Assembly: GCA_964466035.1 (NCBI GenBank)
Contig: CAYXLR010000001.1
Location: forward strand, 114,130-178,129
DNA length: 64,000 bases
DNA from: an uncultured Thermotogae bacterium
GTDB taxonomy: Bacteria; Bipolaricaulota; Bipolaricaulia; UBA7950; UBA9294
Direction of reading: 5' to 3'
Shown: positions 30,751-61,690 of the stretch, in pieces
Layout of the letters: every line of letters starts with the position of its first letter
How positions within the stretch are numbered: position 1 is the stretch's first letter
Translations under genes and position numbers: made by a program
Notes under the pieces: model-generated
What the model saw: the letters and a program-made list of their open reading frames with translations, nothing else
Databases searched by the model: none
Told to the model about the DNA's origin: nothing

Positions 30751-30932
30751 CTACTTCTCGTCGTACTCTGCATCGATGTCTGCGCCGTCTTTCGACGGCG
30801 TCTCGCCCTTTGTCGTCGCTTCGTCGGTCGGCTCCGTCCGTTTACTTCTCGTCGTACTCCGTGTCGATGTCTGCGCCGTCTTTCGACGGCGTTTCGCCCT
30901 TTGTTGTCGCTTCGCCGGTCGGCTCCGTCCGT
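30751..30932 (-). repeat. Two 91-bp tandem units in the dnaK-dnaJ spacer, each a copy of the dnaK 3' terminus plus a GNRA hairpin
   Basis: U1 30751-30841 and U2 30842-30932 differ at 7 of 91 positions. In mRNA sense each ends ...GADID(A/T)EYDEK-stop, copying the dnaK end [13 protein letters not shown] at 30933-30965. Each has CGCCGTC-GAAA-GACGGCG (30783-30800, 30874-30891). Confidence 0.9.
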
Positions 30933-32780
30933 CTACTTCTCGTCGTACTCCGCATCGATGTAGTCGCCGTCGTCCTCGTCGTCCGAGCCCGTCTCGCCGC
31001 CGCCCGGCGCGGCGCCTCCGGTGGCCTTCTGGGTCTCCTTGTACGCCTCGGCGGCGATCTCCTGCGACGCCTTGGCGAGCTCGTCGGTCTCCCTTCGGAT
31101 GTCCGCGATGGAGGCGTTCTTGTCGAGCTTCTCCCGCAGGCGTCGGACCCGATCCTCGATGTCGGATCGCTTGGCCGCGTCGACCTTCTCGCCCAAATCG
31201 GAAAGCGCCTTCTCCACCGAGTAGATCAGTTGATCGGCCTGGTTGCGGGCCTCGACCAGCTCGCTCTTCCGCTTGTCCTCCTCGGTGTGCTCCTCGGCCT
31301 CCACCCGCATCCGCTCGATCTCGGACTCGTCGAGCCTCGAGGAGTCCTGAATCGTGATCGACGAGCTCTTCGACGTCGCCTTGTCCTTCGCGGTGACGTG
31401 AAGGATCCCGTCGGCGTCGATGTTGAACGACACGTCGATCTGCGGGATCCCGCGCGGGGCCGGAGGGAGCCCGGTCAGCTGGAACTTGCCGAGCGACTTG
31501 TTGTCGGCGGCCATCTTCCGTTCTCCCTGCACGACGTGGATCTCGACCGCCGGTTGGTTGTCCTCGGCGGTGGTGAACGTCTTCGCCTTCTCGGTCGGGA
31601 TCGTCGTGTTCCGCTCGATCAGCGGCGTCGCGACGCCGCCGAGCGTCTCGATGGAGAGCGTCAACGGCGTGACGTCGAGGAGGACGATCTCGTCGACCTC
31701 GCCGGCGAGGACGCCGCCCTGGATCGCCGCGCCGGCGGCGACGACCTCGTCGGGGTTGATCTCCCGGTTCGTCTTCTCCGGGACGCGGCTGGCGATCAGC
31801 TGTTGGACCTTCGGGATCCGCGTCGACCCGCCGACGAGAACGACCTGGTCGATGTCGTCGGGGCCCTTCCCCGCCTCGCGGAGCGTCGCGTCGACGACGT
31901 TGATCGTCCGCTGGAGGTAGTCGTCGATCATCCCCTCGAACTTGGCCCGCGACAGCTTCTTCTCGAGGTGCTTCGGCCCGCTCGCGTCCGCGGTGATGTA
32001 CGGAAGGTGGATCGTCGTCTCCATCCGGGTCGACAGTTCCTTCTTCGCCGCCTCGCTGGCGTCCTTCAGTCGCTGCAGCGCGCTCGGGTCCTTTGACAGA
32101 TCGATCCCCGTGTCCTTGCGGAACTCCTCGACGAGCCAGTCGATGATCCGCTGATCGAAGTCGTCTCCCCCGAGGCGCGTGTCGCCGTCGGTGGCGAGGA
32201 CGTCGAAGACGCCGTCTCCGATCTCGAGGATCGAGACGTCGAACGTGCCGCCGCCGAGATCGTAGACGAGGATCGTCTGATCGTGCTCCTTGTCGAGGCC
32301 GTAGGCGAGGGCGGCCGCCGTCGGCTCGTTGATGATCCGCATGACCTCGAGGCCGGCAATCCTCCCCGCGTCCTTCGTCGCCTGTCGCTGCGAGTCGTTG
32401 AAGTAGGCCGGGACGGTGATCACCGCCTTGACGACCTTCCCTCCGAGGTGCGCCTCCGCGTCGCTCTTCAGCTTCTGAAGGATCATCGACGAGATCTGCT
32501 CGGGGGTGTACGTCTCCTCCTTTCCGTCGGTCGAGATGTGCACGCGATGGTCGGTTCCCATCTCGCGCTTGATCGAGGCGACGGTGTTCTTCGGGTTGGT
32601 GATCGCCTGGCGCTTGGCGAGCCGCCCGACGAGACGCTCACCGGTCTCGGTGAACGCGACGACCGACGGGGTGACGCGTTCCCCTTCCGCGTTGGTGATC
32701 ACCTCCGGCGTGCCGGCCTCGAGAACGGCGACACACGAGTTGGTCGTCCCCAAATCGATCCCAATGATCTTCTCCTTCAT
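30933..32780 (-). CDS. dnaK: Molecular chaperone DnaK (Hsp70)
   Basis: ORF track 30933..33212 trimmed to ATG 32780 (AGGAGG upstream; ATGA overlap with the grpE stop). [19 protein letters not shown]..., [12 protein letters not shown], full-length Hsp70. Confidence 0.95.
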
Positions 32781-33295
32781 GCTTTCTCCTCCTGTACGGC
32801 GGGCCCTCGGCTGACGGTGACTTTGCTGACGCGCAGGACCCGTCCGTTTCTTCGATAACCGGGTGAGAATTCCTCGATGATCGTGTTCTTCTCCTCTTCG
32901 CTCGGCGCCGCAAGCAGCGCCTCGTGAAGCGTGGGGTCGAACGGAGTCCCGACGGACGGGATCCTTTCGACGCCGCGCTGCTCGAGGATCCGTGCGAACT
33001 GGGCGAAGATCTGCTCCACGCCGGCGACGAACGCCTCCACGTTCTGGTCGTCCGCGTAGCTGCGGAACGCCCGCTCCAGGTTCTCGTAGGGCGTCAGGAA
33101 CTCGAGGAGCGCCTGATCGACGACCCGCTCTTCCAGCGTCGCGATGTCTCGCGCCGTCCGCTTCTTGTAGTTCTCGAACTCGGCCTGCAATCGCCGAAGC
33201 CGGTCGATGCACGACGAGAGCTCGGTCGCTTCCTGTTCGACCGGCGCCTCGGCCGGCTCCTCGACCCGGTCGTGGTTTTTCTTCTCTTCGCTCAT
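32777..33295 (-). CDS. grpE: Nucleotide exchange factor GrpE
   Basis: Trimmed to ATG 33295 (ATGA overlap with the hrcA stop). [15 protein letters not shown]..., [20 protein letters not shown]. Confidence 0.9.
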
Positions 33296-34365
33296 TCGCC
33301 TATCCTTTCGGAGCTCTGGGCCCCCGAGCTCACCAGCAGCCCCTCCAGTCGGTTGGCGACGTAGCTCGCGGTGGAGAGCGCCCGCCCGTAGTCCATCCAC
33401 AGCGGTCCGATCACGCCGAGGGCCCCCGCGTGGGGGCGGTAGCTGCAGCTGACGACGGAGAATTCGTCCAATCCGGGCAACGGGAAGTCCCCGATGTTGA
33501 CGACGAGGCCCTCCCTTTCCGCGCGGGCCTTTGACAGCGCCTCGATGAACCCGGTCTCGTCCCGGACGGCGTGGCTGAAGCTGACGAAGTGGGCCATCGC
33601 GCGATCGGGCGCCGTCTGCTTCAACGCGTCGGTCAGGTTCAGCAGACCGTCGAATCGAACCGACCGCTGCGTCCGGCGCTGCAGGAGCCGCTGCAGGACG
33701 AGAATCGCCTGCCGGACCGGGCGCTCGTACCATCCCTCCGATTCGTCGGCGTCGGGGAGCGTGCGGACTTCCGAGAGATGTACCCCGTGGAGGTTCTCGT
33801 TGATCAGCTGCATGATGTGATCGATCTCGACCGGCGACAGATCGTCGTCCAACGGGACGAGGCCGTGCTCGACGATCCCGATGTCGGAGAGGATCAACAG
33901 GAACGCCAAACGCTCGTCCATTCTCAGCAATACGACCCGATCGAGCTTCGTTTCGTCCGGCCGTGGCGGGACGACGAACGACGCGCAGCCGGTGATGTTC
34001 CCGAGGAGAAACGCCGTCTGGCGGATCGTTTCCTCCACGTCGAGACACCGCGATTCGGCCAGCTCGACGATCTCGAGGCGTTCCTCGCGCGTCAGTTCCG
34101 ACAGATCGAGCAGCCACTCGACGAAGAACCGGTACCCTTCCTTGGTCGGGATCCGCCCCGAAGACGAGTACGGCTTCTCGATGTAGCCGGCGGCCTCGAG
34201 GTCGTTCATGTCGTTTCGGACCGTGGCGGAGCTGACCGCCAGGCCGTAGTCCTCGAGGATCATCCGAGACGAAACGGGTTCGCGGAGCCGGATGTACCGG
34301 TCGACGATTTCCTTCAGAATCAGCCGCTGTCTCTCGGGGAGATCCCTATCATTAGCACTCTGCAT
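33292..34365 (-). CDS. hrcA: Heat-inducible transcription repressor HrcA
   Basis: [63 protein letters not shown]... Heads the grpE-dnaK-dnaJ operon. Confidence 0.9.
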
Positions 34366-34378
34366 GTTAGTTTGCTAA
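34352..34378. promoter_or_regulatory. CIRCE-like HrcA operator overlapping the hrcA start codon
   Basis: TTAGCACTC-N9-GTTTGCTAA versus consensus TTAGCACTC-N9-GAGTGCTAA (2 mismatches in one arm). The hrcA ATG (34365-34363) lies in the 9-nt spacer. Confidence 0.7.
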
Positions 34379-34406
34379 TGGTAGTCCGTGGGACAGGATC
34401 TGTCAA
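34378..34406 (-). promoter_or_regulatory. Sigma70-type promoter of the hrcA operon
   Basis: Minus strand TTGACA (34406-34401), 17 nt, TACCAT (34383-34378). The -10 element abuts the CIRCE element. Confidence 0.55.
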
Positions 34407-34481
34407 CAGAGACACGTGATCTTTGGACTGAAATCGCGTCGGCGGACCGCTCCGGGTGGAGCTTCGGCCCCGGGGCTCACC

Positions 34482-37067
<2,586 letters not shown>

Positions 37068-37085
37068 GAAGGATCACGCGGTCAG

Positions 37086-37504
37086 TATAGGGGCGAGCTT
37101 GATTCCCGCAAGAGATTGGGATGGGAAGACGCAACTGGAGTGCAGTTAGGGTGTTGGCTCTGTCCTGTTGCTCGGCTCTCCGAGCCTCGCAGTAGGGGCG
37201 AGCTTTCTTCACGCAAGGGACTGGAACAGGAATGCGTGTTGGGAACGTAGCACGGCGTCTTGCCTGTCCTGTTGCTTGGCTCTTCGAGCCTCGCAATAGC
37301 CACGGATTCCTGCGACTGAAAGGCTGCCATGCGGCGGGCGACACGCGACTCCGCGGAGGTAGTTCCGTCAGGCTGCTGCTTCGGCGCTACACGCCTCGCA
37401 GTAGGAGCGAATTTCATTACCACAAGGAGCTGGGACGGGAAAGCGGACGTGGGATGTGATCCGAACGCTGGTCGTGTCCTGTTGCTTGGCTCTTCGAGCC
37501 TCGC
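37086..37504. repeat. Tandem array of four ~104-nt structured units between the Wzy/TPR gene and secA
   Basis: Units at approx. 37086-37192, 37193-37296, 37297-37400 and 37401-37504. Units 1, 2 and 4 share TAGGGGCGAGCTT...TGTCCTGTTGCT(T/C)GGCTCT(T/C)CGAGCCTCGC. Unit 3 keeps only the ends. No credible ORF. Confidence 0.85.
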
Positions 37505-37520
37505 GCGGAATTCCGCCGCT

Positions 37521-39635
37521 TCAGGGAGAGTCGGCGGGGGGGAGCCCTTCGAGCCTCTCCAGAACGGTGTCGCGCTCCTGCCGGAGGCGCTCGATGTCGG
37601 TGCGAAGCTTGCCGTACTCCTCCGCGGTGATGGTCTCCTGCCTCGCGAGGCGTTCCTGGGCGTCGGCCAGCTTGTCGTCGATCGTCCGAAGCGCCGTCTC
37701 GAACGCACGTCGGGCCTCGTTCGGCATTCCGCGTGCCTCGTAGACCAAGCCGAGCCCGATGTGCGCCGCTTCGAACCGTGGCGCGTCGGCGATCAGCTGC
37801 TCGAACAGGCCGGTCGCTTCGAGGCGGTCGCCGACTTGCGCGGTGATGACCGCCTTGAGGTAGCGGGACCGGACGGCGACTTCCTCCCGGGGATGCGTGG
37901 CCAGAAGCAGGTCGATCGTCTCGAGTGCCCGGTCGAACTGACGCGCGTTCGTCGCTAGGTTCGCGTAGTTGAGATACACCGTCTCGTCGACGAAGCGGGT
38001 AGAGCAGCGCTCGAGGTTCGCCCACGCCTCGTCGTAGGCCCCGAGCTCGATCTGCACCACGGCGAGGTGGTAGTAGGTCTGGCGCGGGGCGAAGTCGAGG
38101 TCGAGGCTCCGCTCGAGAAGCGATTCCGCTCCGCGGAGGTTGCCGAGCTGCGCCTGCTCGATCCCCTTGCTCATGAGGAGGTTCGCGCTGATGTCGCGTA
38201 CGGCGACGACGGACACGATCAGCCCGATCACGGTGACGGCGGCCAGCGCGCCCTTCAGCTTCCAGCCGACCAGCTCCACGCTCCGCAGCGCCGCATCCCC
38301 GTAGGCGCGCGAGAAGGCCAGGCCGCCGACGACCACGAGGACGAGGGACGACGCGGGCAGGTGCGCGGGAAAGCTGACGAGGCCGTGGACCAGAAACGCG
38401 ACGATCCCGCACGAGAAGAGAAGGAGGTCGAGCCGGTTCGTCTCGTCGTTCGATCGCGTTCGCTTCCAGAGGGAGACGACGAGGACAACGAGGAACGACG
38501 CGGCGGCGAGGACCCCCAGGATGCCGAGCTCCGCGAGGACCTGTACGTATTCGTTGTGGGCCTGCGCCGCTCGATCGATGTAGAAGTCGTAGGCCTCTCC
38601 GCGGGACGTGGCGAGAAACTCCGCCTTGTACGGGATGAAGTTCAGCTTGTAATTGCCGAGGCCGACGCCGGTCATGGGGTGGTCCTTGAACATCTCCCAG
38701 CCGATCCACCAGTCCCACGATCGAACGGCACCGGAGTTCCGCTCCCACCATCGTGCGATCCGCGACGAATCGGACCTCGAGAGGCCGACGATCGAGTTCA
38801 ACGGGCCGGACGGCGCCTCGACCAGGAACGTCACGACGAGCGCGCCGATCAGGATCAAAAGCCAGACCCGATTCCGGCGAGTCGGCTCGATCGGTCGGAA
38901 GATCAACCATCCGAGGAGGAACGCGACGGCGGCGACGATCAGCGCGGCCACCGTGCCGGCCTGCTGGACGATCAGGACCATCCCGAAGCAGAACGCGATC
39001 AGAAGAATCGAGGACAGCTTCACCCAGCGGGAGCGGGGCCGGACGACGAGAACGACCGCCGGGAAGAGCAGGTAGGCCAGGAATCCGCCGAGGTAGTTGC
39101 GGTTTCCCATCGTGGAGATCACCGCGTTCAGCCCGCTCGTTCCCGCGGGGCCGCGCATGACCCCGAGGTACTGGAGCATCCCGTACAACGCCACGAGGAA
39201 CCCGGACGCGAGGAGCGCAAAGAGCAACAGGTTGGCGTCCCGCTGATCCCGGGCGGCGTTGGCGATGATGAGCATCAGCAACAGGAAAAAGACGATCAGC
39301 ACCAGGCTCTGCACGACGACGCGGCCGTTCGTCGCGTACAGCAGAGAGAGAAGCGACGCGGCGACGAACCCGAGAACGGGGAACGCGATCCACGGAAGGC
39401 GGATCGACCACGTCCCTTTCTGCCACGCCGAGAGCCCCCACAGGACCGCGAGGACGGAGACGCCGATCAGCGCAACGATCGTCTTCCCGTATCCGTACTC
39501 CGAGATCCCGGGCCAGATGAACAGCGGCAGCGCGAAGACGAGGAACAGCACGGCGTAGAAGAGGACCCGATCGAGCGGGACGGACGGCGTGGCAAACGCG
39601 GGCTGTTTCTTCCGTTTCCCCCTCTTCTTGGCCAT
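37521..39635 (-). CDS. O-antigen ligase/polymerase-like (Wzy_C) membrane protein with C-terminal TPR domain
   Basis: About 10 TM helices, with GNRNYLGGFLAYLL and HNEYVQVLAELGILG (Wzy_C-like loop). Followed by TPR-like repeats (YYHLAVVQIELGAYDEAWANLERC...) and a coiled-coil tail. Confidence 0.75.
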   Translation of the reverse strand: MAKKRGKRKKQPAFATPSVPLDRVLFYAVLFLVFALPLFIWPGISEYGYGKTIVALIGVSVLAVLWGLSAWQKGTWSIRLPWIAFPVLGFVAASLLSLLYATNGRVVVQSLVLIVFFLLLMLIIANAARDQRDANLLLFALLASGFLVALYGMLQYLGVMRGPAGTSGLNAVISTMGNRNYLGGFLAYLLFPAVVLVVRPRSRWVKLSSILLIAFCFGMVLIVQQAGTVAALIVAAVAFLLGWLIFRPIEPTRRNRVWLLILIGALVVTFLVEAPSGPLNSIVGLSRSDSSRIARWWERNSGAVRSWDWWIGWEMFKDHPMTGVGLGNYKLNFIPYKAEFLATSRGEAYDFYIDRAAQAHNEYVQVLAELGILGVLAAASFLVVLVVSLWKRTRSNDETNRLDLLLFSCGIVAFLVHGLVSFPAHLPASSLVLVVVGGLAFSRAYGDAALRSVELVGWKLKGALAAVTVIGLIVSVVAVRDISANLLMSKGIEQAQLGNLRGAESLLERSLDLDFAPRQTYYHLAVVQIELGAYDEAWANLERCSTRFVDETVYLNYANLATNARQFDRALETIDLLLATHPREEVAVRSRYLKAVITAQVGDRLEATGLFEQLIADAPRFEAAHIGLGLVYEARGMPNEARRAFETALRTIDDKLADAQERLARQETITAEEYGKLRTDIERLRQERDTVLERLEGLPPADSP

Positions 39636-39647
39636 GGCCGCCTCCGA

Positions 39648-40865: not shown

Positions 40866-40876
40866 CCTTCCTCCCC

Positions 40877-49433: not shown

Positions 49434-49584
49434 GAGAACTCTTCGAGTTCTTTGGCAGAACCTCCGGTTCTGCTGCCGACATGAAAGCCGACGAACAACT
49501 CTCCGAGTTATTGAGCGGAACTTGGTTCCGCGGGCGACAACGGGCGGCTCTGCGAGCCGCTTGGCAGAACCTTCGGTTCTGCTT
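49434..49584. repeat. Direct repeats of paired tri-loop hairpins in the glnA upstream region
   Basis: GAACTC-TTC-GAGTTC (49436-49450) with GCAGAACC-TCC-GGTTCTGC (49455-49473). Repeated as GGCTC-TGC-GAGCC (49546-49558) with GCAGAACC-TTC-GGTTCTGC (49564-49582). Also AACTC-TCC-GAGTT (49497-49509). Confidence 0.75.
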
Positions 49585-49811
49585 CCGAAGATCCCACCGT
49601 GGCCGTCGAACGGCGGGCCGCGAGGGCCTTAGGTGCTTAGAATCCTCATCGTTTCGCAACCTCCCGAGAAGGCCCGGAAGGGCCGGTTTGATTGGAAGGC
49701 ATTGTAGCAAGCCGGGTGCCGCAATGCAACGGCAGGTCTTGGATTGCTTGCTATCGGACCGCAGTCGACCTAAACTGCCTCCATCCCAACAGCGTACGCA
49801 GGAGGTGAGCT

Positions 49812-51131
49812 ATGGCGGAGAGGAAGACGGCCGAGGTGCTGGCCAGGGTGAAGGAAGCGAAGGTGCAGTTTGTCCAGCTGTGGTTCACCGACCTGCTGGG
49901 CAACCTCAAGAGCCTTGAGATCCCGGCGAGCGAGCTGGAAACGGCGCTCGACGAGGGGATCGGCTTCGATGGCTCGTCGGTTCACGGCTTCGCGCGGATC
50001 GATGAGAGCGACATGCTCGTCCGCCCGGACCCGGACACGTTCGTCGTCCTGCCCTGGGAGAACGTCGGGCGGCTGATCTGTGACATCGTCCAGCCTGGCG
50101 GCGAGTCGTACAAGGGCGACCCGCGCTGGATCCTGAAGCAGGCGCTCGCCCGCGCCGCCGACCGCGAGCTGAGGATGCTCGTCGGCCCCGAGCTGGAGTA
50201 CTTCTATCTCCGATCGGATCGATCGCTCGACACGCTCGATTCGGCCGGATACTTCGACCTCTCCCCTCCGGACGTGTCGACCGAGATCCGGCGGGAGACC
50301 GTCCTCGCGATCGAGTCGATGGGCATCCCGGTCGAGGCGGCGCACCACGAGGTCGCCCCGAGCCAGCAGGAGATCGACCTGCGGCACTGCGACGCGCTGA
50401 GCATGGCCGATCGCCTGATGACCTGCCGCTACGCGATCAAGGAGGTCGCCCGGCGCCGCGGCGTGCACGCGACGTTCATGCCGAAGCCGCTCAACGCCGA
50501 GAACGGGTCGGGGATGCACACCCACATGTCGCTCGCCGGCCTCGACGGGTCGAACGCCTTCTTCGACGCCGAGGATCCGCTGCACCTGTCGGCGCTCGCC
50601 CGCGGCTACATCGCGGGGATCATGCGCCACGCCAAGGAAATCACCGGCGTCTGCGCGCAGTGGGTCAACTCGTTCAAGCGGCTCGTGCCCGGGTACGAAG
50701 CGCCGGTTTACATCACGTGGGCGCGGCGGAACCGCAGCAACATGATCCGCATTCCGATGTACAAGCCGGGCCAGGAATCGACGACGCGGATCGAGTTTCG
50801 CGTGCCGGACTCGGCCTGCAATCCGTACCTCGCGTTCGCCGTGCTCCTGCACGCCGGGCTCGAGGGGATCGAGCAGGGCTACCCGCTGCCGGACCCGGTC
50901 GAGGTCGACGTCTACCACCTGACCGACGAGGAGCGGGACGAACTCGGGATCGAGACCCTGCCCGGCAGCCTCAACGAGGCGATCGCCTGCATGCGGGAAA
51001 GCGAGCTCGTGCGACGGGCGCTCGGCGACCACATCTTCGACAAGTTCATCGAGAACAAGCAGATCGAATGGGACGCCTACCGCTCGCAGGTGCATCAATA
51101 TGAAATTGATCGATATCTACCGATCTTGTAG
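49812..51131 (+). CDS. glnA: Glutamine synthetase, type I
   Basis: AGGAGG 6 nt upstream. FTDLLGNLKSLEIP, GFDGSSVHGF, HHEVAPSQQEIDL, NGSGMHTHMSL, SACNPYLAFAVLL. 439 aa. Confidence 0.95.
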   Translation: MAERKTAEVLARVKEAKVQFVQLWFTDLLGNLKSLEIPASELETALDEGIGFDGSSVHGFARIDESDMLVRPDPDTFVVLPWENVGRLICDIVQPGGESYKGDPRWILKQALARAADRELRMLVGPELEYFYLRSDRSLDTLDSAGYFDLSPPDVSTEIRRETVLAIESMGIPVEAAHHEVAPSQQEIDLRHCDALSMADRLMTCRYAIKEVARRRGVHATFMPKPLNAENGSGMHTHMSLAGLDGSNAFFDAEDPLHLSALARGYIAGIMRHAKEITGVCAQWVNSFKRLVPGYEAPVYITWARRNRSNMIRIPMYKPGQESTTRIEFRVPDSACNPYLAFAVLLHAGLEGIEQGYPLPDPVEVDVYHLTDEERDELGIETLPGSLNEAIACMRESELVRRALGDHIFDKFIENKQIEWDAYRSQVHQYEIDRYLPIL

Positions 51132-51249
51132 CCATCGCCCAAGGTCGGCTGCTCGCCAACTCAGGGGAATGCTCCGTGAGGAGCATTCCCCAAGGGACCG
51201 GCCCGGAAGGGGACGGTCCCCGATCGATCGGTATCTACCGGTGTTGTAG
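51108..51249 (+). repeat. Direct repeat of the glnA 3' terminus flanking a hairpin-rich ~90-nt insert
   Basis: The 27-nt codon-aligned tail is copy 1 at 51105-51131 (ATT GAT CGA TAT CTA CCG ATC TTG TAG = IDRYLPIL*) and copy 2 at 51223-51249 (ATC GAT CGG TAT CTA CCG GTG TTG TAG = IDRYLPVL*). Between them: GGGGAATGCTCC-GTGA-GGAGCATTCCCC (51164-51191) and GGGACCG...CGGTCCC with a GGAA loop (51194-51220). Confidence 0.85.
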
Positions 51250-51255: not shown

Positions 51256-51350
51256 CCGGGGACCATCAGGTGATCGAAGCCTCGGAGACGCTCGGCGTCT
51301 TCGGTGGTTGCGGGTCGCGACGTGAAGCCTTCAGGCAACCGATGAGTCAT
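51256..51350 (-). pseudogene. Orphan 5' fragment resembling the start of a GNAT acetyltransferase gene
   Basis: Strong SD (TTAGGAGGCTAG-ATG at 51350), then MTHRLPEGFTSRPATTEDAERLRGFDHLM, a typical GNAT N-terminus. The rest of ORF 51117..51350 runs antisense through the glnA-tail copy and the hairpins, and looks non-coding. Confidence 0.4.
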
Positions 51351-51636: not shown

Positions 51637-52854
51637 CTAGCGCCTCCGACGGCCGCCGTGGCTCGAGTACGAGCGGCCGCGTCCTGCGGAGCTTCGACGA
51701 ACGGCGGGGAACTGCCGCTCGGGTTCGAACCCCGCCCCATAGTTGAAGTCCGGAAGGCGGCGCCGTTCCAGCGCGGTTCCGAGCGCCTTCTCGATCTGGC
51801 GGACCATCAGTCCGTCTCCCCGAACCGCGAGCGTGAAGGCCTCTCCCGTGCGCTCGGCTCGGCCGGTGCGCCCGATCCGGTGGGTGTAGGCATCGACCGT
51901 GTTGGGCATGTCGAAGTTGACCACGTGAGAGATCTCGGACACGTCGATCCCGCGGGCCGCGATGTCCGTCGCCACAAGCACGTCGATCCTTCCTTTGCGG
52001 AAGCCGTCAATCGCCTGCTGTCGCTGACTCTGGCTCATGTTCCCCTGAAGCGCGGCCGCGCGATGTCCGTGCTTCTTCATGTGGTCGGCAAGGTTGCGGG
52101 CGCGGTGCTTGGTGCGCGTGAAGACGAGAACGCGGCCGGTCGACGTCCGTTGAAGCATCGCGATGAGAAGCTCCTTCCGGCGGTCATCCGGCACCGGATA
52201 CAGCGCGTGCGAGACCGTGTCCACCGGAGTCATCGATCCGATCTGCACCGTCTCCGGATCTCCGAGGATCCTGTCGGCGAGGACGCGGATGTCCTTGGGC
52301 ATGGTCGCCGAGAAGAACAGGGTCTGCCGCTTCTCGGGGACCTGCCGGATGATCCGACGGACGTCGGGAAGGAATCCCATGTCGCACATGCGGTCGGCCT
52401 CGTCGAGAACCAGTACCTCCACGTGTGACAGGTCGATCCCGCGTGCGTCGACGTGATCGAGCAACCGCCCCGGGCACGCGACCACGATCTCCGCTCCTCG
52501 CCGCAGTGCCGCGAGCTGTGGCCCCTTGCTCACACCGCCGTAGATCGCGACGCTGCGGATCCCCGTGTCGCGGCCCAACTTGACGATGTCCTGGTGGATC
52601 TGCTCGGCCAGCTCGCGGGTCGGCGCGACGATAAGCCCACGGACCACGCCGCGCGGCCCTTGGCTGAGACGCTGGAGAATCGGCAGCACGAAGGCGGCCG
52701 TCTTCCCCGTTCCTGTCTGGGCGATGCCCAGAAGATCGCGCCCCTGCAGGATGACCGGGATGGCCCTCTCCTGAATCGGTGTGGGGACGCTGAAACCGAT
52801 GGACTTCACTCCGGCGGCAATGCGCCGGTCAAAGCGAAACCGTTCGAAACTCAA
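51637..52854 (-). CDS. DEAD-box ATP-dependent RNA helicase
   Basis: [37 protein letters not shown]; Arg-rich C-terminal tail. TTG 52854 (AAGGAG 8 nt upstream, giving MSFERFRFD...) preferred over the track start 52884. Confidence 0.9.
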
Positions 52855-53189
52855 TAGGTACACTCCTTGGCTCCGTTGAGCCAAGTCGCACGCTCAGCTC
52901 GGGTCAACCGCAATTCTCGTTTGGGTTGGTATGCGATGGAATTGCTGACGAAACTGGTGCCAAGTATACCGGGTCTGTCTCTGCATCACCAGGTAACTCG
53001 TCCCTGTAGGGAAGCTGAACAGTGAAGCACAGAAGGTCGAGCCCGGCAGAGGCGACAAACGATATGGCCAGTACCGGTGCGCCGGGCGTTGATCAGGGCG
53101 CTGTCGAGTCGATCGCGAGAATGGAGTTCCCCCGCTCCTCCCGCGGGACGCCCACATAGGTCCGGAGGGCTGTGCCCCGGCAGCGAGCC

Positions 53190-53630
53190 TCACTCCGGTG
53201 GGTCCCAGGCGCGGATCCAATCGAACGTCTGGCCATCGAACGTGACGGTGAGTTCGAGAATGTAGTACCGCATGTCCTCTCCGACCAGGATCCACCCCTC
53301 GGCGCCGCCGGTCTGCCGGACGTGCGTCGGTTCGCCGGGGCCGGCCTCCGGATTGGTGATGTCGCGATGAAAGCTCTCTTCCCAGCGGACGCAGGCGGAG
53401 AAGGCCCCCCGCGCCCAGTCGGGGAAGGCCGCGTCGTCCAACGCCCCGACGAGGCGATCCCCTTCGTCCCACGTCACGCGACGGTACAGGTTGTACTCCA
53501 GGCCGGGCTGCATGGCGTAGGCGCGCAGGAGGTCCTGACCGATCCGGATGTACTGGTCGGCATCGGAGGAGGAGCACGCCGCCAGGAACCAGACCGAGAG
53601 CAGCACGAGCGCGAGAGCCGGTCGCTTCAC
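53190..53630 (-). CDS. Hypothetical lipoprotein
   Basis: MKRPALALVLLSVWFLAAC lipobox. 146 aa. No family recognised. Confidence 0.6.
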   Translation of the reverse strand: MKRPALALVLLSVWFLAACSSSDADQYIRIGQDLLRAYAMQPGLEYNLYRRVTWDEGDRLVGALDDAAFPDWARGAFSACVRWEESFHRDITNPEAGPGEPTHVRQTGGAEGWILVGEDMRYYILELTVTFDGQTFDWIRAWDPPE

Positions 53631-53724
53631 ACGAACCTCCTTGCCGATCGTCGCGCGGATCGTCTCGGCTCCGCAGCGGGACGGTGCACGGCGAACTTGT
53701 TCCCGGCGCCGGATTCCCGGCTCC

Positions 53725-54207
53725 CTACCCCTTGTACCCGATTGTCCGGAGGAACGCCTTCCGCTGGGCGATGTCGTCCGGGCCTTCGACGCCCTTCGGC
53801 CTGTCGCCGTCGATGACGCCGAGGATCCCTCGGCCGGATTTGGTCTCCGCGACGACTACTTCGAGAGGATTCGCCGTTGCGCAAAAAATCCGGCAGACCT
53901 CGGGGACCCGCTTCACGGCGTTCATCACGTTGATCGGGAAGGCGTCCTTGAGGAAGACGATGAACGCGTGGCCGGCGCCGATCGCCTCGGCGTTTCGGAT
54001 CGCGAGCGCCTCGAGCTCCTCGTTCGTCCCGGCGTGGCGGATCAGGCACGGCCCGGACGCCTCGCAGAAGGCGAGGCCGAACTGGATCCCGGGGATCGCG
54101 GTGACGAGCGCCTCGTGGAGGTCCTCGACCGTCTTGATGAAGTGCGACTGCCCGAGGATCAGGTTCAGCTCGGCCGGCTTCTCGATCGGGATCAACTTCA
54201 GCTCCAT
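53725..54207 (-). CDS. Adenosine-specific kinase family protein (PF04008-like)
   Basis: GQSHFIKTVEDLHEALV...FGLAFCEASGPCLIRHAGTN...GAGHAFIVFLKDAFPINVMNAVKRVPEVCRIFCATANP matches my recollection of this small conserved family. Confidence 0.6.
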   Translation of the reverse strand: MELKLIPIEKPAELNLILGQSHFIKTVEDLHEALVTAIPGIQFGLAFCEASGPCLIRHAGTNEELEALAIRNAEAIGAGHAFIVFLKDAFPINVMNAVKRVPEVCRIFCATANPLEVVVAETKSGRGILGVIDGDRPKGVEGPDDIAQRKAFLRTIGYKG

Positions 54208-54208
54208 C

Positions 54209-55468: not shown

Positions 55469-55932
55469 TGCACTTCGCGGAGGACGTTGACCATCTCGAT
55501 CAGGCTCTCGGCGGCCTGGGCGCCTTTGTTGCCGGCCTTCGTCCCGGCCCGCTCGATCGCCTGATCGACGGTGTCGGCGGTGATCACGCCGAACGTCACC
55601 GGGACCGACGCGTCGAGGTTGACGCGGGCGAGCCCCTTGCTCACCTCGCTGGCGATGTACTCGAAGTGCGGCGTCGCCCCGCGGATGACGGCGGCGAGCG
55701 CGATGACCCCGTCGTACCGACCGGTGTCGGCCATCACCTTGGCCGCCTTCGGGACCTCGAACGCGCCGGGGACGCGGCAGACGTCGACCGCGTCGTCGGC
55801 CACGTTCGAGCGACGGAGCCGATCGAGCGCCCCCTCGAGCAGGCGCTCGGTGATCAGGTTGTTGAATCGGCTGACGGCGATGCCGACGCGGAGGCCGCTG
55901 CCGTCGAGCTTCCCTTCGTAGACCGCTCCCAT
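55465..55932 (-). CDS. ribH: 6,7-dimethyl-8-ribityllumazine synthase
   Basis: GIAVSRFNNLITERLLEGA..., VPGAFEVP, IRGATPHFEYIA. 155 aa. Confidence 0.95.
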   Translation of the reverse strand: MGAVYEGKLDGSGLRVGIAVSRFNNLITERLLEGALDRLRRSNVADDAVDVCRVPGAFEVPKAAKVMADTGRYDGVIALAAVIRGATPHFEYIASEVSKGLARVNLDASVPVTFGVITADTVDQAIERAGTKAGNKGAQAAESLIEMVNVLREVQ

Positions 55933-55968
55933 GGCTCCCTCCTCGGGATTCCTCTTGCTGCGTAGGCT

Positions 55969-57168
55969 TCAGACTTCGGTTAACTGGTGACCGAGCTTCT
56001 CCTTCTTGGTCCTGAGGTACTCACGATTGTACTCGTTGGGCGGGATCTCGATCGGGATCTGCTCGACGACGGTCAGCCCGTAGCCGGAGAGGCCGACGAC
56101 CTTCTTCGGGTTGTTCGTCAACAGGCGGATGGTCGAAAGGCCGAGCTCGCAGAGGATCTGCGCGCCGATCCCGTAGTCGCGCAGGTCGGCGTCGAAGCCG
56201 AGGTGCTCGTTCGCCTCCACCGTGTCGAGCCCCCGATCCTGGAGCTGGTAGGCGCAGACCTTGTTCTTCAGCCCGATCCCGCGCCCCTCCTGGCGCATGT
56301 AGACGACCACGCCGAGCCCTTCCTCCTCGATCCGTTCCAGGGCGTGTTGGAGCTGGGCGCCGCAGTCGCAGCGGAACGAACCGAAGACGTCGCCGGTCAG
56401 ACACTCGGAGTGGACCCGGACGAGGACGTTCTCCTTCCCGGAGACGTCCCCCTTCACCAGGGCGACGTGCTCCTCGTCCTCGATCGGGCTGGTGTAGCTG
56501 ACGATCTTAAACGTCCCGAACCGGGTCGGGAGCGCGGCCTCGGCGACCCGCTCGATCAGCCGCTCGGTCCGCTTTCGATACGCGATCAGATCGGCGATGT
56601 TGACGAGCGAAAGGCCGTGTTTCTCGGCGAACGGCTCCAGCTGCGGCAGCCGGGCCATCGTTCCGTCGTCGTTCAGGATTTCGCAGAGGACGGCCACCGG
56701 CTTCAACCCGGCGAGCCGCGCCAGATCGACGGTCGCCTCGGTGTGCCCCGCCCGTCGGAGGACGCCGCCGTCCCGGGCGGTCAGCGGAAAGACGTGGCCG
56801 GGAAGCGCGAGGTCGTCGGGGCGGGTCGCCTCGTCGGTCAGCAGACGGATCGTGTGGGCGCGGTCGTAGGCGGAGATCCCGGTCGCGATCCCGTTCTTCG
56901 CGTCGACCGAGACGGTGAAGTGCGTCCCGTGCAGCGCGGTGTTCTCCGGACACATCGGGCCGAGGCCGAGGGCGCGGGCCCGCTCCTCGGTGATCGGCAT
57001 GCAGACGAGACCTCGACCGTGCGTGATCATGAAGTTGACCGCGTCCGCGGTGGCGTGCTCGGCGGCGATCACGAGGTCGCCTTCGTTCTCGCGGTTCTCG
57101 TCGTCGACGAGGATCAGCATCTCGCCGGCGCCGTACTTCCGGATCGCTTCCTTAATCGTGATGAACAA
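55969..57168 (-). CDS. ribBA: Bifunctional 3,4-dihydroxy-2-butanone-4-phosphate synthase / GTP cyclohydrolase II
   Basis: [22 protein letters not shown] (DHBP synthase half). [28 protein letters not shown] (GCH II half). Confidence 0.95.
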
Positions 57169-57742
57169 ACGGCATCATCCTTTCGACGTACTTCGCCAGG
57201 ACATCGAACTCGAGGTTCACCGGATCCCCGCTCTTCCGATCCTGCATCGTCGTCTTCTCGTAGGTCTCCGGGACGATCGAGCACCGGAACGAGTTTCCGT
57301 CGATCCCGTAGCTCGTCAGGCTGATCCCGTCGACCGCGATCGAGCCCTTCTCGACCACGTACCGGAGGTACGCCCCCGGGTACGAGACGATCAAGATCCA
57401 GTCCCTCTCCCCCCGGTACAGCGCGCCGATCCGCCCGACCGCGTCGACGTGCCCGAGGACCCAGTGCCCGTCGAGGCCGTCGCCCGGTCGTACCGGGAGC
57501 TCCAGGTTGACCCGCGCGCCGGCGCGCAGCCCGCCGAGCGTCGTCCGCGCCGCCGTTTCTCTCGACAGGTCGGCGCGAAAGGCAACGTCGGCCAGCTCGC
57601 GGACCGTCAGGCAGACCCCGTTCACCGCGACGCTCGCCCCGATCTCGAGGCGATCGCACATCCGATCGGGGAACTCGATCTCCATCGCCCCGGCGCGCGA
57701 CGACCGGAGTTGTCCGAGGCCTTGCACAACGCCCGTAAACAT
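57152..57742 (-). CDS. ribE: Riboflavin synthase alpha chain
   Basis: [10 protein letters not shown]..., two lumazine-binding repeats ([13 protein letters not shown] / [11 protein letters not shown]). 17-nt overlap with ribBA. Confidence 0.9.
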
Positions 57743-57833
57743 CGGCGAGGCGCAGTGTACCGCGGTCGAACCCCCTGTTCAACGGAGTTGCGCGCGTTTC
57801 TCGCCCACGATACCCTTTTCGAAGGAGGTCATC

Positions 57834-59414
57834 GTGGGAACGAAGCCAGTACGCTATGGAACGGTAGCGGTTCTTTTTCTTTTCCTGTCGCTTTGCGCCG
57901 CCGCGGCCGAGTTGGAGATCACCTTCGACGTCACCGAGCGGGAGGGGTACCGGGAGCTGATCGTCGTGACGCCCCTCGCCAACTACCTCTTCTCCGAGGA
58001 CGGCGGCACGCTTCGGAGCGTCCTACTGACGTTCGCCCCGTACGGCTCCGACGTCGAGGAGCTGGTCTACGGGACGACGTCCGACACGACGACCTTCGCC
58101 CGGCGGTACACGGTCGACGCGGAGTTCCCGTTCAACCTGAGCGGTGAAGGTTCCGAGGGGACGTACACGCTCCACGAGCCCGAGCGGACCGACTCCAACG
58201 CGCTCGTCGTCACGTTCACCGGCGAGCTGGACGGCTACACGGTGATCAAGCGGTTCACGATCGAGCCGGACGCGCTGTACGACATGAGCGTCGAGGTCGA
58301 GATCGCGCCACGGGCGCCGGCCGGAGAGGACGCCGCCGTGCCCGAGCTCGCGATGACCGTCCATAAGTACATCCTGCAGGAGAAGGGGCGGCAGCTTCAC
58401 TACCTGTTCGACGGCGAGCCTTCGCCGGCGATGCTCGCGCCCGGCTCGTACTTCTCGTTCGACGGGCTCGGCCTGATGGACAACGAGATCGTCTTCTTCC
58501 TCATCCCGGACGAGGGCACGGCGGTCGATCCGTTCGCCGAGGCGACGGCGTCGGGAAGCTGGCGGTTCGGCGTGAAACTTCCGGCGACGGAGGGGACGTC
58601 GACCTACCGGTTCACGCTGTACGGCGGGCGCCGCCGCTTCCTGCTGATGGAGGCCGTCGGGATTGAGGCGCTCGACGAGCCGGGCATCGGCGCGCGGGCG
58701 ATGGTGCTCGTGATCCGGTTTCTCGACCTCCTGTATCGCCACACCGGCAACTACGGATGGGCGATCATCCTGTTCACCCTGATGACCCGGATCGTCCTCT
58801 TCCCGTTGATGCGGAAGCAGTACCACTCGATCGCGAAGACCCAGCGGATCCAGCCGCGGCTGAAGCGGATCCAAGAGCGGTACAAGGACGACCGCCAGCT
58901 GATGCAGCAGAAGGTCCTCGAGGTCTACAAGAAAGAGGGCGTCAACCCGATGGGCGGCTGCCTCCCGATGCTGATCCAGCTTCCGATCATCTTCATCATC
59001 TGGCGCGCGCTGCTGTACGCGAGCCCGCAGATCCACATCTCGCCCAGCTTCCTCTGGATCCCGGACCTGAGCGTTCACGACCCGTACTTGATCCTCGTCA
59101 TCCTGACGACCCTGATCATGCTCGTCCAGCAGCGATTCATGTCCCCGATGCCGACCGGCGACGCGAAGGGGATCCAGAAGTACATGGGCTACTTCTTCCC
59201 GTTGATCATGGGCGTCCTGTTGTGGCGCTTCCCGGCCGGCCTTTGGCTGTACTACCTCCTGACCACCGCGGCCCAGGTCGGGCAGCAGGCGTTCGTCAAC
59301 TGGGAGCTGGCGCGGGCCGAAGGCGGGACGTTCGCCGCTCCGGTCGAGGACGTCCTGGACGTGGAGGAAGCCGAGGAGAGCGATGGAGACGAAGGCGCTT
59401 CAGCAGGAGGTTGA
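57834..59414 (+). CDS. yidC: Membrane protein insertase YidC
   Basis: ORF track 57507..59414 trimmed to GTG 57834 (GAAGGAGG 5 nt upstream). Large periplasmic domain, then YGWAIILFTLMTRIVLFPL, NPMGGCLPMLIQLPI. Confidence 0.9.
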   Translation: MGTKPVRYGTVAVLFLFLSLCAAAAELEITFDVTEREGYRELIVVTPLANYLFSEDGGTLRSVLLTFAPYGSDVEELVYGTTSDTTTFARRYTVDAEFPFNLSGEGSEGTYTLHEPERTDSNALVVTFTGELDGYTVIKRFTIEPDALYDMSVEVEIAPRAPAGEDAAVPELAMTVHKYILQEKGRQLHYLFDGEPSPAMLAPGSYFSFDGLGLMDNEIVFFLIPDEGTAVDPFAEATASGSWRFGVKLPATEGTSTYRFTLYGGRRRFLLMEAVGIEALDEPGIGARAMVLVIRFLDLLYRHTGNYGWAIILFTLMTRIVLFPLMRKQYHSIAKTQRIQPRLKRIQERYKDDRQLMQQKVLEVYKKEGVNPMGGCLPMLIQLPIIFIIWRALLYASPQIHISPSFLWIPDLSVHDPYLILVILTTLIMLVQQRFMSPMPTGDAKGIQKYMGYFFPLIMGVLLWRFPAGLWLYYLLTTAAQVGQQAFVNWELARAEGGTFAAPVEDVLDVEEAEESDGDEGASAGG

Positions 59415-59844
59415 GGCCTACCTCCGAGAGCTTCTCACCGTCCTCGAAGAGGACGCGACGTTCAAGGTCGAACCGTCGTCCGATCCCGAGGGGCTCTACG
59501 TCAATCTCGAGGGGAGCCTGTTCTCGCTTCCGGAGGACCGGGCCGCCCTCACGGCGTTGGAGCTTCTCCTCCGCGGCGCGCTCCGCCGGAAGTCGGGTCA
59601 GGAAATCGAGATCGTCCTCGACGTCAACGGGGCGGTGAAGCGGCGTCGGGCGGAGCTCATCCGATTCGCGTTGACCAAGGCGGAGGACGTCCGGCGCGAC
59701 CGGAAGCGGATCCGCCTGAACCCGATGCCGGCCCACGAGCGGCGAACGATCCACGTCACGTTGGCCAACGTCCCCGGCGTGCAGACGCGGAGCATCGGCG
59801 AAGGGGACGAGCGGCGGGTGTTGATCGAGCCGGAAGACGCCTGA
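59383..59844 (+). CDS. jag: Jag/KhpB RNA-binding protein (KH + R3H domains)
   Basis: Follows yidC with a 32-nt overlap. C-terminal LNPMPAHERRTIHVTLANVPGVQTRSIGEGDERRVLI (R3H). Confidence 0.85.
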   Translation: METKALQQEVEAYLRELLTVLEEDATFKVEPSSDPEGLYVNLEGSLFSLPEDRAALTALELLLRGALRRKSGQEIEIVLDVNGAVKRRRAELIRFALTKAEDVRRDRKRIRLNPMPAHERRTIHVTLANVPGVQTRSIGEGDERRVLIEPEDA

Positions 59845-61202
59845 TGGGCGAAGGCACCATCGCCGCGGTTTCCACCCCCCTCGGCGAGGGGGGGATTGGG
59901 ATCGTCCGGCTGACCGGTCCGGACGCGATCGGCATCGTCGCCGGCCTGTTCCGTTCCGCCCAGGGCGACGCTCTGCAGGACGCGCCGAGCCACACCCTTC
60001 ACTACGGCAGGATCGTCGTCGGGGATCGCCCGATCGACGAGGCCCTCGTTTCGGTCATGCGGGCGCCGCGAACGTACACGCGGGAGGATGTCGTGGAGAT
60101 CAACTGCCACGGCGGGATCGTCGCGACGCGAGCGGTCCTCGACGCCGTCCTCGCCGCCGGGGCGCGGATGGCCGAGCGGGGCGAGTTCACCAAGCGCGCG
60201 TTCCTCAACGGCCGGATCTCGCTCGACCAGGCGAAGGCGGTCCTCGACGTGGTGCGGGCGCGGACGATCCTCGGCCTCGAGGCGGCCGTCGATCGGCTCG
60301 GCGGGCGATTCTCGGACGCGCTGGAGGAGATCCGGGGCGAACTCGCCGGAATCCTCGCCGACCTCGAGGTCGAGATCGACTACCCGGACCTCGACGTCGA
60401 CGTCGAGTCCGCCCTCCCGCGGATCGAGGCGCTCTCCCGGCGCGTCGGTCGGCTCCTCGCCCGGGGCGAGCAAGGACGGATCCTCCGCGAGGGACTGACG
60501 ATCGCGATCGTCGGTCGCCCGAACGTCGGGAAGTCGACGCTCCTGAACGCCCTCCTCGCGGAGGAGCGTGCGATCGTGACGCCGATCCCAGGGACGACCC
60601 GCGACACGGTCGAGGAGGAGGCGTCGCTGCACGGAATCCCGGTCCGCTGGATCGACACGGCCGGCCTCAGGGAGCCGGGCGATCCGGTCGAGGCGGAGGG
60701 GGTTCGGCGGACGCAGGGAGCGATCGATCGGTCCGACCTCGTCCTCTGTCTCGTCGACCGGAGCGAACCGCTCACCGAGGAGGATCGGGAGATCCTCGGC
60801 CGGGAATGGGGCGTCCCCTCGATCCTGGTCGTCAACAAGGTCGACCTGCCGGACCGCCTCGGCGAGCCGGTCGCGGGCCCGTGGTTCGAGCGTCTCGACG
60901 TCTCGGCGAAGACCGGAGACGGGATCGACGGGCTGCGGGACGCGATTCTCGAGCGGCTGGTCGGCGGGGAGCTGCCGACCCGCAACTCGGTCCTCCTTCT
61001 GGGCTCTTGGGAGCGCGACCTGATCCGGCGGGCCGGCGAAGCGCTCCGCCGGGCGGCGGAGACGGCGCGCGTCGGGCACACGCCGGACATGATCGCCGAG
61101 GAGCTGCGCACCGCCTATCGGACGGCCGGCGAGATGCAGGGGATCGACGTCGGCGAATCGATCCTCGACGCCGTCTTCTCCCGCTTCTGCGTCGGCAAGT
61201 AA
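59844..61202 (+). CDS. mnmE: tRNA modification GTPase MnmE
   Basis: IAAVSTPLGEGGIGIVRLTG, GRPNVGKSTLLNAL, DTAGLR. C-terminal FCVGK (the conserved C-[IV]-G-K end). TGATG overlap with the jag stop. Confidence 0.95.
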   Translation: MGEGTIAAVSTPLGEGGIGIVRLTGPDAIGIVAGLFRSAQGDALQDAPSHTLHYGRIVVGDRPIDEALVSVMRAPRTYTREDVVEINCHGGIVATRAVLDAVLAAGARMAERGEFTKRAFLNGRISLDQAKAVLDVVRARTILGLEAAVDRLGGRFSDALEEIRGELAGILADLEVEIDYPDLDVDVESALPRIEALSRRVGRLLARGEQGRILREGLTIAIVGRPNVGKSTLLNALLAEERAIVTPIPGTTRDTVEEEASLHGIPVRWIDTAGLREPGDPVEAEGVRRTQGAIDRSDLVLCLVDRSEPLTEEDREILGREWGVPSILVVNKVDLPDRLGEPVAGPWFERLDVSAKTGDGIDGLRDAILERLVGGELPTRNSVLLLGSWERDLIRRAGEALRRAAETARVGHTPDMIAEELRTAYRTAGEMQGIDVGESILDAVFSRFCVGK

Positions 61203-61690
61203 CCCCGGCTCTCGCTGAGCTCGCAGAGTTCGCAAAGAAAAACTCAGAGTGGAAACCCGTCGGCTTCCCCTTGGCGCCCTCTGCGTCTTTGCGAGAGGTG
61301 GGGAAACCGTCCCGGTCTCTCGCCAAGCTCGCCAAGGCGCAGAGCAGAACCCAGATCACCTGCCGCACAAATGAAAAGGGTTGAGCTTGTCTTGGCGTCC
61401 TTTGCGCCTCTGCGAGAAGTAGGGAAACCATCTCAGCCTCTCGCCAAGCTCGCCAAGGCGCAGAGCAGAACCCGGGGGTACTCACCTCGTGAATGGGGAA
61501 GCTCAAGCCTCCCTTGGCGTTTGGCGTTCTTCGCGCCTTTGCGAGAGGTAGGGAAACCGTCCCAGCCTCTCGCCAAGCTCGCCAAGGCGCAAAGCTGCCC
61601 CCGGATCGCCTGCCGTGTGAATGGGAAGTATTAAGCTTTCCTTGGCGCCCTCTGCGCCTTTGCGAGAGATGCCTTTCCTTGGTGGCTCTA
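61203..61690. repeat. Tandem array of ~4.5 structured ~120-nt units filling the mnmE/recJ convergent spacer
   Basis: Units at approx. 61203-61268 (partial), 61269-61390, 61391-61511, 61512-61640 and 61641-61690 (partial). Shared core CTTGGCG..C(T/C)TTGCGAGAGGT(A/G)GGGAAACCGTCCC.GCCTCTCGCCAAGCTCGCCAAGGCGCA(G/A)AGC. No credible ORF. Confidence 0.85.

Follow-up and report, generated by a model that had tools for sequence, protein, structure and literature searches.

In a 64,000-nucleotide (nt) stretch of DNA from an uncultured Thermotogae bacterium (GTDB phylum Bipolaricaulota; GenBank assembly GCA_964466035.1, contig CAYXLR010000001.1, positions 114,130 to 178,129 of the forward strand; hereafter the window), degenerate copies of the last codons of a gene, stop codon included, were found downstream of both dnaK and glnA. 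The evidence assembled here makes it probable that these copies arose by tandem duplication of gene 3' ends across the stop codon, through replication slippage or unequal exchange, and were subsequently reshaped by the gain and loss of units and by gene conversion. The original prediction, derived from the letters of the window, had proposed such a pattern at four loci; it was substantiated at dnaK and glnA, and it failed at the Wzy/TPR gene upstream of secA and at mnmE, where the scores were at chance level.

At the dnaK-dnaJ junction, where all features lie on the minus strand, the dnaK gene (Pfam HSP70) ends at 30933, and its real 3' end (30933-30962, the source copy T1) encodes YIDAEYDEK followed by TAG. 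Directly downstream lie two tandem units of 91 nt, unit 1 at 30842-30932 and unit 2 at 30751-30841, both recognized by Tandem Repeats Finder (TRF), a repeat search and alignment, and unit 1 also by folding. Each unit appears to comprise decayed C-terminal linker codons, a hairpin and a tail copy: T2 in unit 1 (30842-30871; DIDTEYDEK, stop TAA) matches T1 at 26/30 positions and T3 in unit 2 (30751-30780; DIDAEYDEK, stop TAG) at 28/30, so that the three tail copies claimed for dnaK are obtained when the gene's own tail is counted. The hairpins, CGCCGTC-GAAA-GACGGCG in both units, are predicted at 30874-30891 and 30783-30800, each with a 7-bp stem and a GAAA loop. TRF returned a 91-nt period with 2.4 copies and a 91% match, the repeats being direct, head-to-tail and in register, and since units 1 and 2 differ by 7 substitutions they can be told apart. 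The ribosome-binding region of dnaJ and its GTG start (30733) follow directly after T3. As a side observation, in the window and in the related locus L011 an overlapping 38-codon open reading frame (ORF) in the +1 frame (30933-30985 and 30842-30960) begins at an ATG that spans the dnaK codons GAT-GCG, crosses the spacer and closes at the TAA of the second tail. Because the period of 91 is 3n+1, the three dnaK-tail stops close all three frames before dnaJ; this closure and the 38-codon ORF are probably incidental.

The glnA gene (49812-51131, plus strand; Pfam Gln-synt) terminates in a real 3' end at 51105-51131, assigned from Pfam and the sequence, which encodes IDRYLPIL followed by TAG. It is succeeded on the same strand by a 3' untranslated region (3'UTR) at 51132-51222, delimited by folding and comparison with relatives, that contains two predicted hairpins, HP1 (51164-51191) and HP2 (51194-51220), and then by a tail copy at 51223-51249 (IDRYLPVL, TAG), which lies 118 nt after the original and matches it at 23/27 positions. 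The next best downstream match reached 13/27 and shuffled sequences at most 17; hence there is one copy downstream and no second, and the two copies claimed at this locus hold when the gene's own tail is included. HP1 is also found in L115 and L086 (window-related loci or genomes are designated L plus a number, and the window itself W), relatives devoid of the tail copy, which marks HP1 as ancestral. Its stem shows compensatory changes among genomes (L115, L116), as expected for a genuine 3' stem-loop. The hairpins had been described as GNRA-capped, which is correct for the window; at glnA in relatives the loop is GCGC, AGAT or TGCA.

The tail copy of glnA is absent from L115 and L086 and present in W, L114 and L116. 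In L114, the closest relative at this gene (GlnA 96% identical to that of W), the copy is orthologous, spacer and copy being common to both genomes. In L116, another HP1/HP2 module comes after the tail copies, with 76% identity across 38 nt when the sequence is offset by 166 nt. Taken together, these arrangements indicate that the unit duplicated here began 27 nt inside glnA and reached past the 3'UTR hairpins. A convergent acetyltransferase gene downstream of glnA is intact in L086, L115 and L102 and deleted in W and L114. We also observed that a remnant of the 5' end of this GNAT-type gene (MTHRLPEGFTSRPATT...) persists at 51304-51350 on the minus strand of the window, and that the deletion occurred in the same lineage as the tail copy. 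Separately, the divergent intergenic region upstream of glnA (49440-49600) contains the hairpin GGCAGAACC(T/-)TCGGTTCTGC twice, at 49454-49473 and 49563-49582, 109 nt apart, each preceded by a small palindrome, GAGAACTCTTCGAGTTCT or CAACTCTCCGAGTTATTG, and without an Rfam match; the paired hairpins may constitute a repeated regulatory module.

To score such copies, the last 30 nt of a gene, stop codon included, were compared with its own 400 nt downstream, and the match was expressed out of 30; reverse complements of the tails, internal 30-mers, and tails set against the downstream regions of other genes served as controls. Among 42 genes of the window, only dnaK (28/30) and glnA (23/30) exceeded the control maximum of 20 obtained with the downstream regions of other genes. 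For the relatives, GTDB genomes were scanned with HrcA; almost all of the 74 loci obtained belong to Candidatus Bipolaricaulota (Acetothermia), and L011 comes closest, with an HrcA 93% identical. Of 781 gene ends in 75 loci, 7 scored at least 22/30, and six of these were tail copies, namely dnaK in three genomes, secA in L052 and L049, and glnA in W; the seventh, a 22/30 match in L052, was not a tail copy, and secA of L055 scored 20/30. The reverse-complement and internal 30-mer controls did not exceed 21/30 in the same gene ends, so that no inverted tail copy was detected downstream of any of them. Tails against other downstream regions gave five higher scores, one of 23 and four of 30, which are attributed to L024 and L025 holding the same region. 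The mirror-image test on gene 5' ends revealed no genuine copies, its top matches being mis-called starts over tail copies and one scaffolding artefact, and a further 219 kb of related metagenome loci contributed as its only new tail copy the orthologous one at glnA of L114. Stop-spanning tail copies are thus rare, at less than 1% of gene ends, far above chance, and 3'-biased in this sample of approximately 950 gene ends, which covers the same 20 or so genes across many genomes.

In related genomes, the copies recurred at dnaK, secA, dnaJ, ahcY and glnA. The dnaK-dnaJ gap measures 16-37 nt in about 45 related Bipolaricaulota loci and is enlarged in three genomes, to 200 nt in W, 110 nt in L011 and 126 nt in L014, which carry two (91 nt), one (91 nt) and one (102 nt) homologous units, respectively; the spacers of L014 and W are homologous (p=0.0003). 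At secA, the tail units number 0 in L054, 1 in L049, and 4 (of 71 nt) in L052. A local-repeat census located four 34-nt units at dnaJ of L049 (8129-8267), starting in the last 15 nt of the gene. The ahcY gene of L050 is followed by units of 92 and 129 nt whose copies resemble one another in a mosaic fashion (1289-1570), an actinobacterial gene in L082 carries three stop-spanning units of 23 nt (2603-2687), and a small ORF upstream of hrcA in L035 carries a 36-nt stop-spanning tandem repeat (6005-6074). The stops stay in register and are kept in all copies seen except the third ahcY copy of L050, with two cases of a TAG-to-TAA change; the statement that copies retain the stop was accordingly correct for dnaK (TAA, TAG) and glnA (TAG). 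It was also noted that tail copies create spurious long ORF starts for naive gene callers (L014, 13475-14674; L050, 1416-2822), and that an N run beside a 126-nt repeat in L056 (2528-2710) looks like a scaffolding artefact, not a real duplication.

The material between the tails had been regarded as an insertion flanked by target duplications of 27-33 nt. Our comparisons instead indicate that the duplicated segment is the whole unit, 71-118 nt long, and that the spacer is not foreign DNA but what decay has left of the portion that precedes the tail within this duplicated gene end. In the register comparison, the 92-nt unit at ahcY of L050 is about 65% identical to the last 92 nt of the gene, over both halves, and in an ungapped register view the secA unit of L052 matches the last 71 nt of the gene over approximately 53/71 nt. 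At dnaK, the spacer was colinear with the coding sequence just upstream of the tail in L014 (p=0.007 and 0.003) and in L011 (p=0.08 and 0.02). When translated in the tail frame, it aligned with the C-terminal linker of DnaK (p=0.01 in L011, p=0.026 in L014), the tail frame scoring best of the three in 4/4 cases. Given this colinearity with the gene at both the nucleotide and the protein level, the dnaK unit is a duplicate of the last 91-102 nt of the gene including the stop. No dispersed copies of the dnaK, glnA and secA spacers were found by blastn-short in the window and related loci (approximately 1.2-1.4 Mb).

Three other origins were tried and rejected. A junction duplication, comprising the old intergenic region and the dnaJ 5' end, received p values of 0.80, 0.36 and 0.69 in a test of low power. 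An inverted or tandem-inversion duplication is at odds with reverse-complement tails scoring at most 21/30, the only inverted element being a short hairpin arm, and a dispersed mobile element with spacers that match only themselves by blastn-short in the window and all loci. Possible microhomology at the boundaries was noticed in L049 (CCGGTCGC versus CCGATCCG) and in L052 (AGCGGC), where the events are old or the arrays remodelled and the boundaries are not fixed.

As for the hairpins, they form stable stems, and no T run followed any of them by eye in the sequences read, the terminator scan having covered the secA-upstream region. The dnaK hairpin appears to have evolved inside the decayed linker part of the unit. 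At secA of L052, the near-palindrome TCCTTGCGGCAGCGGCAAGAAG in the coding sequence has its counterpart in a perfect hairpin, CTTCTTGCCG/CGGCAAGAAG. A likeness can be drawn to quasi-palindrome correction or template-switch mutagenesis, reportedly worked out by Ripley and Lovett, in that coding near-palindromes become perfect stems in the untranslated copy (TCCTTGCGGCAGCGGCAAGAAG at secA, GAC/GTC runs at dnaK); this process, in contrast, would explain only the maturation of the hairpins and not the duplication, and point mutation under selection is an alternative to it.

The relationship between copy and gene was further characterized by their substitutions. In glnA, W and L114 have the spacer in common, yet gene and copy share synonymous states within each genome (TAT, CTA and TTG in W; TAC and CTG in L114), and an Ile/Val codon is swapped between gene and copy when W is compared with L114. 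Such within-genome sharing is what would be expected had the two repeats exchanged sequence once the lineages had separated. At dnaK, W and L014 are 84.8% identical in the flanking genes and about 85% in the tail copies but only about 60% in the spacers, and the copy ends like its own gene, with DEQ-TAG (CAG) in L014 and DEK-TAG (AAG) in W and L011. The GCG/GCA polymorphism seen in the real dnaK tail likewise coincides with the state of copy 3. Over 13 pairs, 45/81 differences between tail and copy fell at third codon positions (p=3e-5), and 28/49 when one pair per event was used (p=5e-4), which confirms that the differences are mostly silent. The unit lengths of 91, 102, 71 and 118 nt span all three phases and so reveal no conserved reading-frame logic; moreover, the dnaK spacer of L014 contains an in-frame stop.

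On these grounds, a segment of approximately 70-120 nt was duplicated head-to-tail, for which replication slippage or unequal exchange is the likeliest mechanism. In dnaK, secA and ahcY the segment starts 70-100 nt inside the gene and stops 0-3 nt past the stop codon, and in glnA it starts 27 nt inside the gene and ends past the 3'UTR hairpins. Since the first copy still ends in an intact tail and stop, the protein is unchanged and the duplication would be tolerated even in essential genes, the second copy turning into untranslated spacer or 3'UTR. The arrays would then gain and lose whole units, and tail copy and real tail would exchange sequence by gene conversion or by expansion and contraction; through this exchange the copy would track the selected gene tail, differ from it mainly synonymously, and keep its stop. 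Meanwhile, the linker-derived part would decay, and GC-rich near-palindromes such as the GAC/GTC runs would become stable hairpins, which may act as intercistronic or 3' stem-loops. That only events of this kind are seen would reflect selection, as duplications inside genes or truncated upstream starts are presumably likelier to be harmful. No integrase, transposase or dispersed element is involved in this scheme.

Several observations weigh against this interpretation. The W spacer of dnaK performed weakly in the colinear nucleotide test (p=0.30 by shuffling, 0.026 versus other windows) and reached p=0.08 against the linker at the protein level, and the secA spacers are too short for the nucleotide test (p about 0.1-0.5). 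The right boundary falls 0-3 nt after the stop in 3 of about 6 independent events (dnaK, secA of L049/L052, ahcY), a closer clustering than would be expected under simple neutrality. Third positions account for 56% of the differences, somewhat more than the roughly 44% estimated for a constrained gene and a neutral copy, and direct selection may act on the tail copies; conversion with the selected tail explains this excess, and the copies need not be translated. Finally, the heavy redundancy of the gene ends sets the survey apart from a genome-wide census.

Whether the modules were retained by selection was considered with these points in mind. This possible but rather unlikely alternative shares the duplicative origin and assigns to the hairpin the role of an attenuator, terminator or stabilizer, and to the tail copy that of restoring the native context ahead of the dnaJ ribosome-binding site or of an identity-dependent decoy. 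It can draw on the tail copies evolving as slowly as coding DNA next to a diverging spacer, on the stops held in register, TAG-to-TAA changes included, in all copies seen but the third ahcY copy of L050, on preserved stems (an A-to-G change in the secA copy of L049 keeps G-U pairing, and HP1 of glnA changes in a compensatory manner in L115/L116), on the slight third-position excess over the neutral-copy expectation, and on the closure of all frames before dnaJ by the dnaK-type stops of W. The synonymous co-variation of copy and gene is, however, most simply gene conversion, in close relatives the same genes are without modules, no U-tract follows the hairpins, and the unit lengths occur in all three phases. 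It is decidedly unlikely that a stop-anchored process recurrently builds modules of a hairpin and a "ghost C-terminus" after highly expressed genes, the copies being kept because their identity matters; under that proposal, the copy may serve as a decoy for a factor binding the coding end of the mRNA or as the initiation context of the next cistron. The right boundaries at 0-3 nt past the stop in three of about six events belong to this reading, of which the overlapping 38-codon ORF of W and L011 would be a minor variant. Homologous replacement by DNA of a related strain with one illegitimate junction, which would leave the old or donor terminus behind, is highly improbable. The W copy of glnA does encode PVL, the gene tail of the closest relative and the commonest variant in the family, it resides in the lineage from which the adjacent acetyltransferase gene has also disappeared, and tail/copy differences resemble those between orthologues. 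Against this stand the spacer and copy that W and L114 have in common with synonymous states shared within each genome, the colinearity of the dnaK, secA and ahcY units with their own gene ends in multi-unit arrays, and the tandem duplication of the whole glnA 3' module in L116. The repeated allelic replacement suggested in the original prediction is accordingly not needed, as the shared states point to intragenomic conversion.

Integrases that target the ends of tRNA, tmRNA or protein genes leave duplicated gene 3' ends (attL/attR), and integrative elements do leave direct repeats of the last bases of a gene plus its stop, downstream of the intact gene. Site-specific integration with att-like scars, or a small non-autonomous element with long target duplications, was among the proposals examined; both are largely refuted and hardly tenable. 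No integrase or transposase domain was found in the window and there is no island; the 29-90 nt between the repeats differ at each locus, originate in the gene itself and recur nowhere else in the 1.2-1.4 Mb of related sequence. The arrays, which comprise up to four identical units, grow by whole units, relatives present simple empty sites, the duplicated stretches measure anywhere from 15 to about 90 nt, and neither terminal inverted repeats nor reverse-orientation copies (control maximum 21/30) were seen. The chance that repeat mis-assembly in metagenome contigs produced the pattern is practically negligible. Contig L006 ends precisely within the first dnaK tail, a kind of break that repeats often cause, and masked or scaffolded N runs lie near repeats in L011 and L056. 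In opposition to this, the same strain is represented in several JGI and Logan metagenome assemblies (exact HrcA protein match), and the 250-nt dnaK-dnaJ region displayed the two-unit structure in four separately assembled samples, identical in two and with 1-2 single-nucleotide polymorphisms in the others, one of them a synonymous GCG/GCA change in the real dnaK tail with GCA as the state of copy 3. In addition, the 550-nt region downstream of glnA was identical in four further contigs, the dnaK units are distinguishable by their 7 substitutions, and homologous structures exist in other species. Recurrence in independent assemblies thus disposes of the concern about artefacts.

Of the four explanations originally offered, only the slippage-driven growth of terminator modules comes close to the evidence, and the stop-spanning duplications favoured here share many properties with variable-number tandem repeats (VNTRs) of the slippage type. 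Both consist of head-to-tail direct units of tens of bases, in register and without a gap, whose number varies as 0, 1, 2 or 4 between close relatives, empty sites included; in both, the units are homologous to adjacent unique sequence, evolve in concert, and involve no element-encoded machinery. The present repeats differ in that the unit starts in a conserved coding tail, contains the stop and is silent for the protein, that ghost C-termini are left and the decayed part is now hairpins, and that they occupy only 3' ends in the sample. Gene-end tandem duplication is accordingly a further case of a known kind of event, and the notion of an undescribed mode of evolution was an overstatement for what is a protein-silent class of ordinary tandem duplication. 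Our full-text literature search did not turn up an account that treats stop-spanning tail duplications as a class.

Resemblances to other repeat systems were less complete. The hallmarks of miniature inverted-repeat transposable elements and repetitive extragenic palindromic elements are lacking, as there are no dispersed copies, the lengths vary from 15 to about 90 nt, and the only inverted repeats are internal hairpins. Arrays of the CRISPR type (clustered regularly interspaced short palindromic repeats), as might arise by off-target spacer integration, likewise combine repeats of about 27-42 nt with spacers of about 29-90 nt; here, in contrast, the spacers of an array share homology with one another and with the gene, lengths are not fixed, and cas genes were not seen. 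Mycobacterial interspersed repetitive units (MIRUs) are described as entering at start codons and as carrying an internal ORF that is coupled to the gene (PMC12548453). Like the present units, they are tandem repeats of about 40-100 nt between co-oriented operon genes that touch the stop or start codons of the neighbours. Unlike them, MIRUs belong to a single family that is dispersed, apparently mobile and built on a common consensus, whereas the units described here are locus-specific ends of their own genes without dispersed relatives or a conserved phase; no single MIRU-like consensus at many loci was found among the dnaK, glnA and secA spacers, and the secA-upstream and mnmE arrays are mutually unrelated.

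The two other arrays of the window did not prove to be tail duplications. The first, on the minus strand at 37068-37520 between the Wzy_C/TPR gene (37521-39635) and secA (34482-37067), contains approximately 4.3 units of about 105 nt, as established by a repeat search and comparison with relatives. Its units repeat a conserved secA-proximal segment (37071-37112), CTTGCGGG-N14-CCTATACTGACCGCGTGATC, and also carry a small GGCTC-GAA-GAGCC hairpin. In array-free relatives only the secA-proximal segment occurs in this gap, whose length of 38-727 nt among relatives equals 0 to about 6.5 units; secA-upstream arrays or gaps lie at 6578-7301 in L011, 7030-7281 in L013 and 6941-7310 in L015, and also in L025 and L059. 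These comparisons identify the array as tandem repeats located 5' of secA and not as copies of the Wzy tail. The segment is possibly a promoter or leader; a consensus scan called no sigma-70-type promoter in the secA-upstream array, which leaves the conservation next to secA as what speaks for a promoter copy. The tail test gave 17/30 for the Wzy/TPR gene. The 14-nt core formerly thought to link gene end and units matches at 13/14 positions, lies 21-39 nt before the stop and does not include it; matches of this grade appear in 2.4% of mismatched tail/downstream pairs, hisS having one too, so that about one is expected per window. Nor do tail and unit co-vary, since relatives keep the unit motif while the sequence of the gene itself differs.

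The second array (61269-61668, plus strand; TRF) comprises 3.2 units of 121 nt between the convergent genes mnmE (59844-61202, plus strand) and recJ (61688-63916, minus strand). Its unit is a long imperfect palindrome with a stem of approximately 20 bp, CTCTGCGCCTTTGCGAGAGG ... CCTCTCGCCAAG(CTCGCCAAG)GCGCAGAG, and an inner GGGAAACCGTCCC hairpin. The mnmE tail, suspected of recurring in it, scored 15/30 in the tail test. The array is absent from relatives, where L089-L092 contain unrelated hairpins and in L091 the two genes lie only about 25 nt apart, and its relationship to the Wzy-secA array was not significant (p=0.11, 0.61).

The window, with a G+C content of 66%, further encodes dnaJ (29627-30733), hrcA (33292-34365) and a DEAD-box helicase (51637-52884), all on the minus strand, as well as grpE, hisS and yidC, the genes having been named by Pfam matches. 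No transposase or integrase Pfam domain was present in any scanned ORF, in accordance with the earlier statement that the window has none. Rfam 15 at gathering thresholds matched the window only at a tRNA-Leu (12905-12990), with none at the repeats. A surface-protein gene at 15513-17888 (minus strand), with four PKD domains, DUF4384 and PEGA, was observed to contain 264-nt in-frame tandem repeats of 65-76% identity at 16198-17129, which are ordinary domain repeats.

In practical terms, repeats of this kind break short-read assemblies, as where contig L006 ends inside one, mislead gene callers, and can pass for att sites or footprints of mobile elements. They also offer a clear case from nature in which a coding tail and a non-coding copy of only 27-42 nt appear to evolve in concert. 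Stop-spanning duplications are invisible to the protein and can therefore accumulate at essential, conserved genes such as dnaK, secA and glnA, where they constitute raw material for new 3'UTR or intercistronic hairpins; in these bacteria, the dnaK-dnaJ junction has in this way been lengthened from about 20 nt to 110-200 nt.

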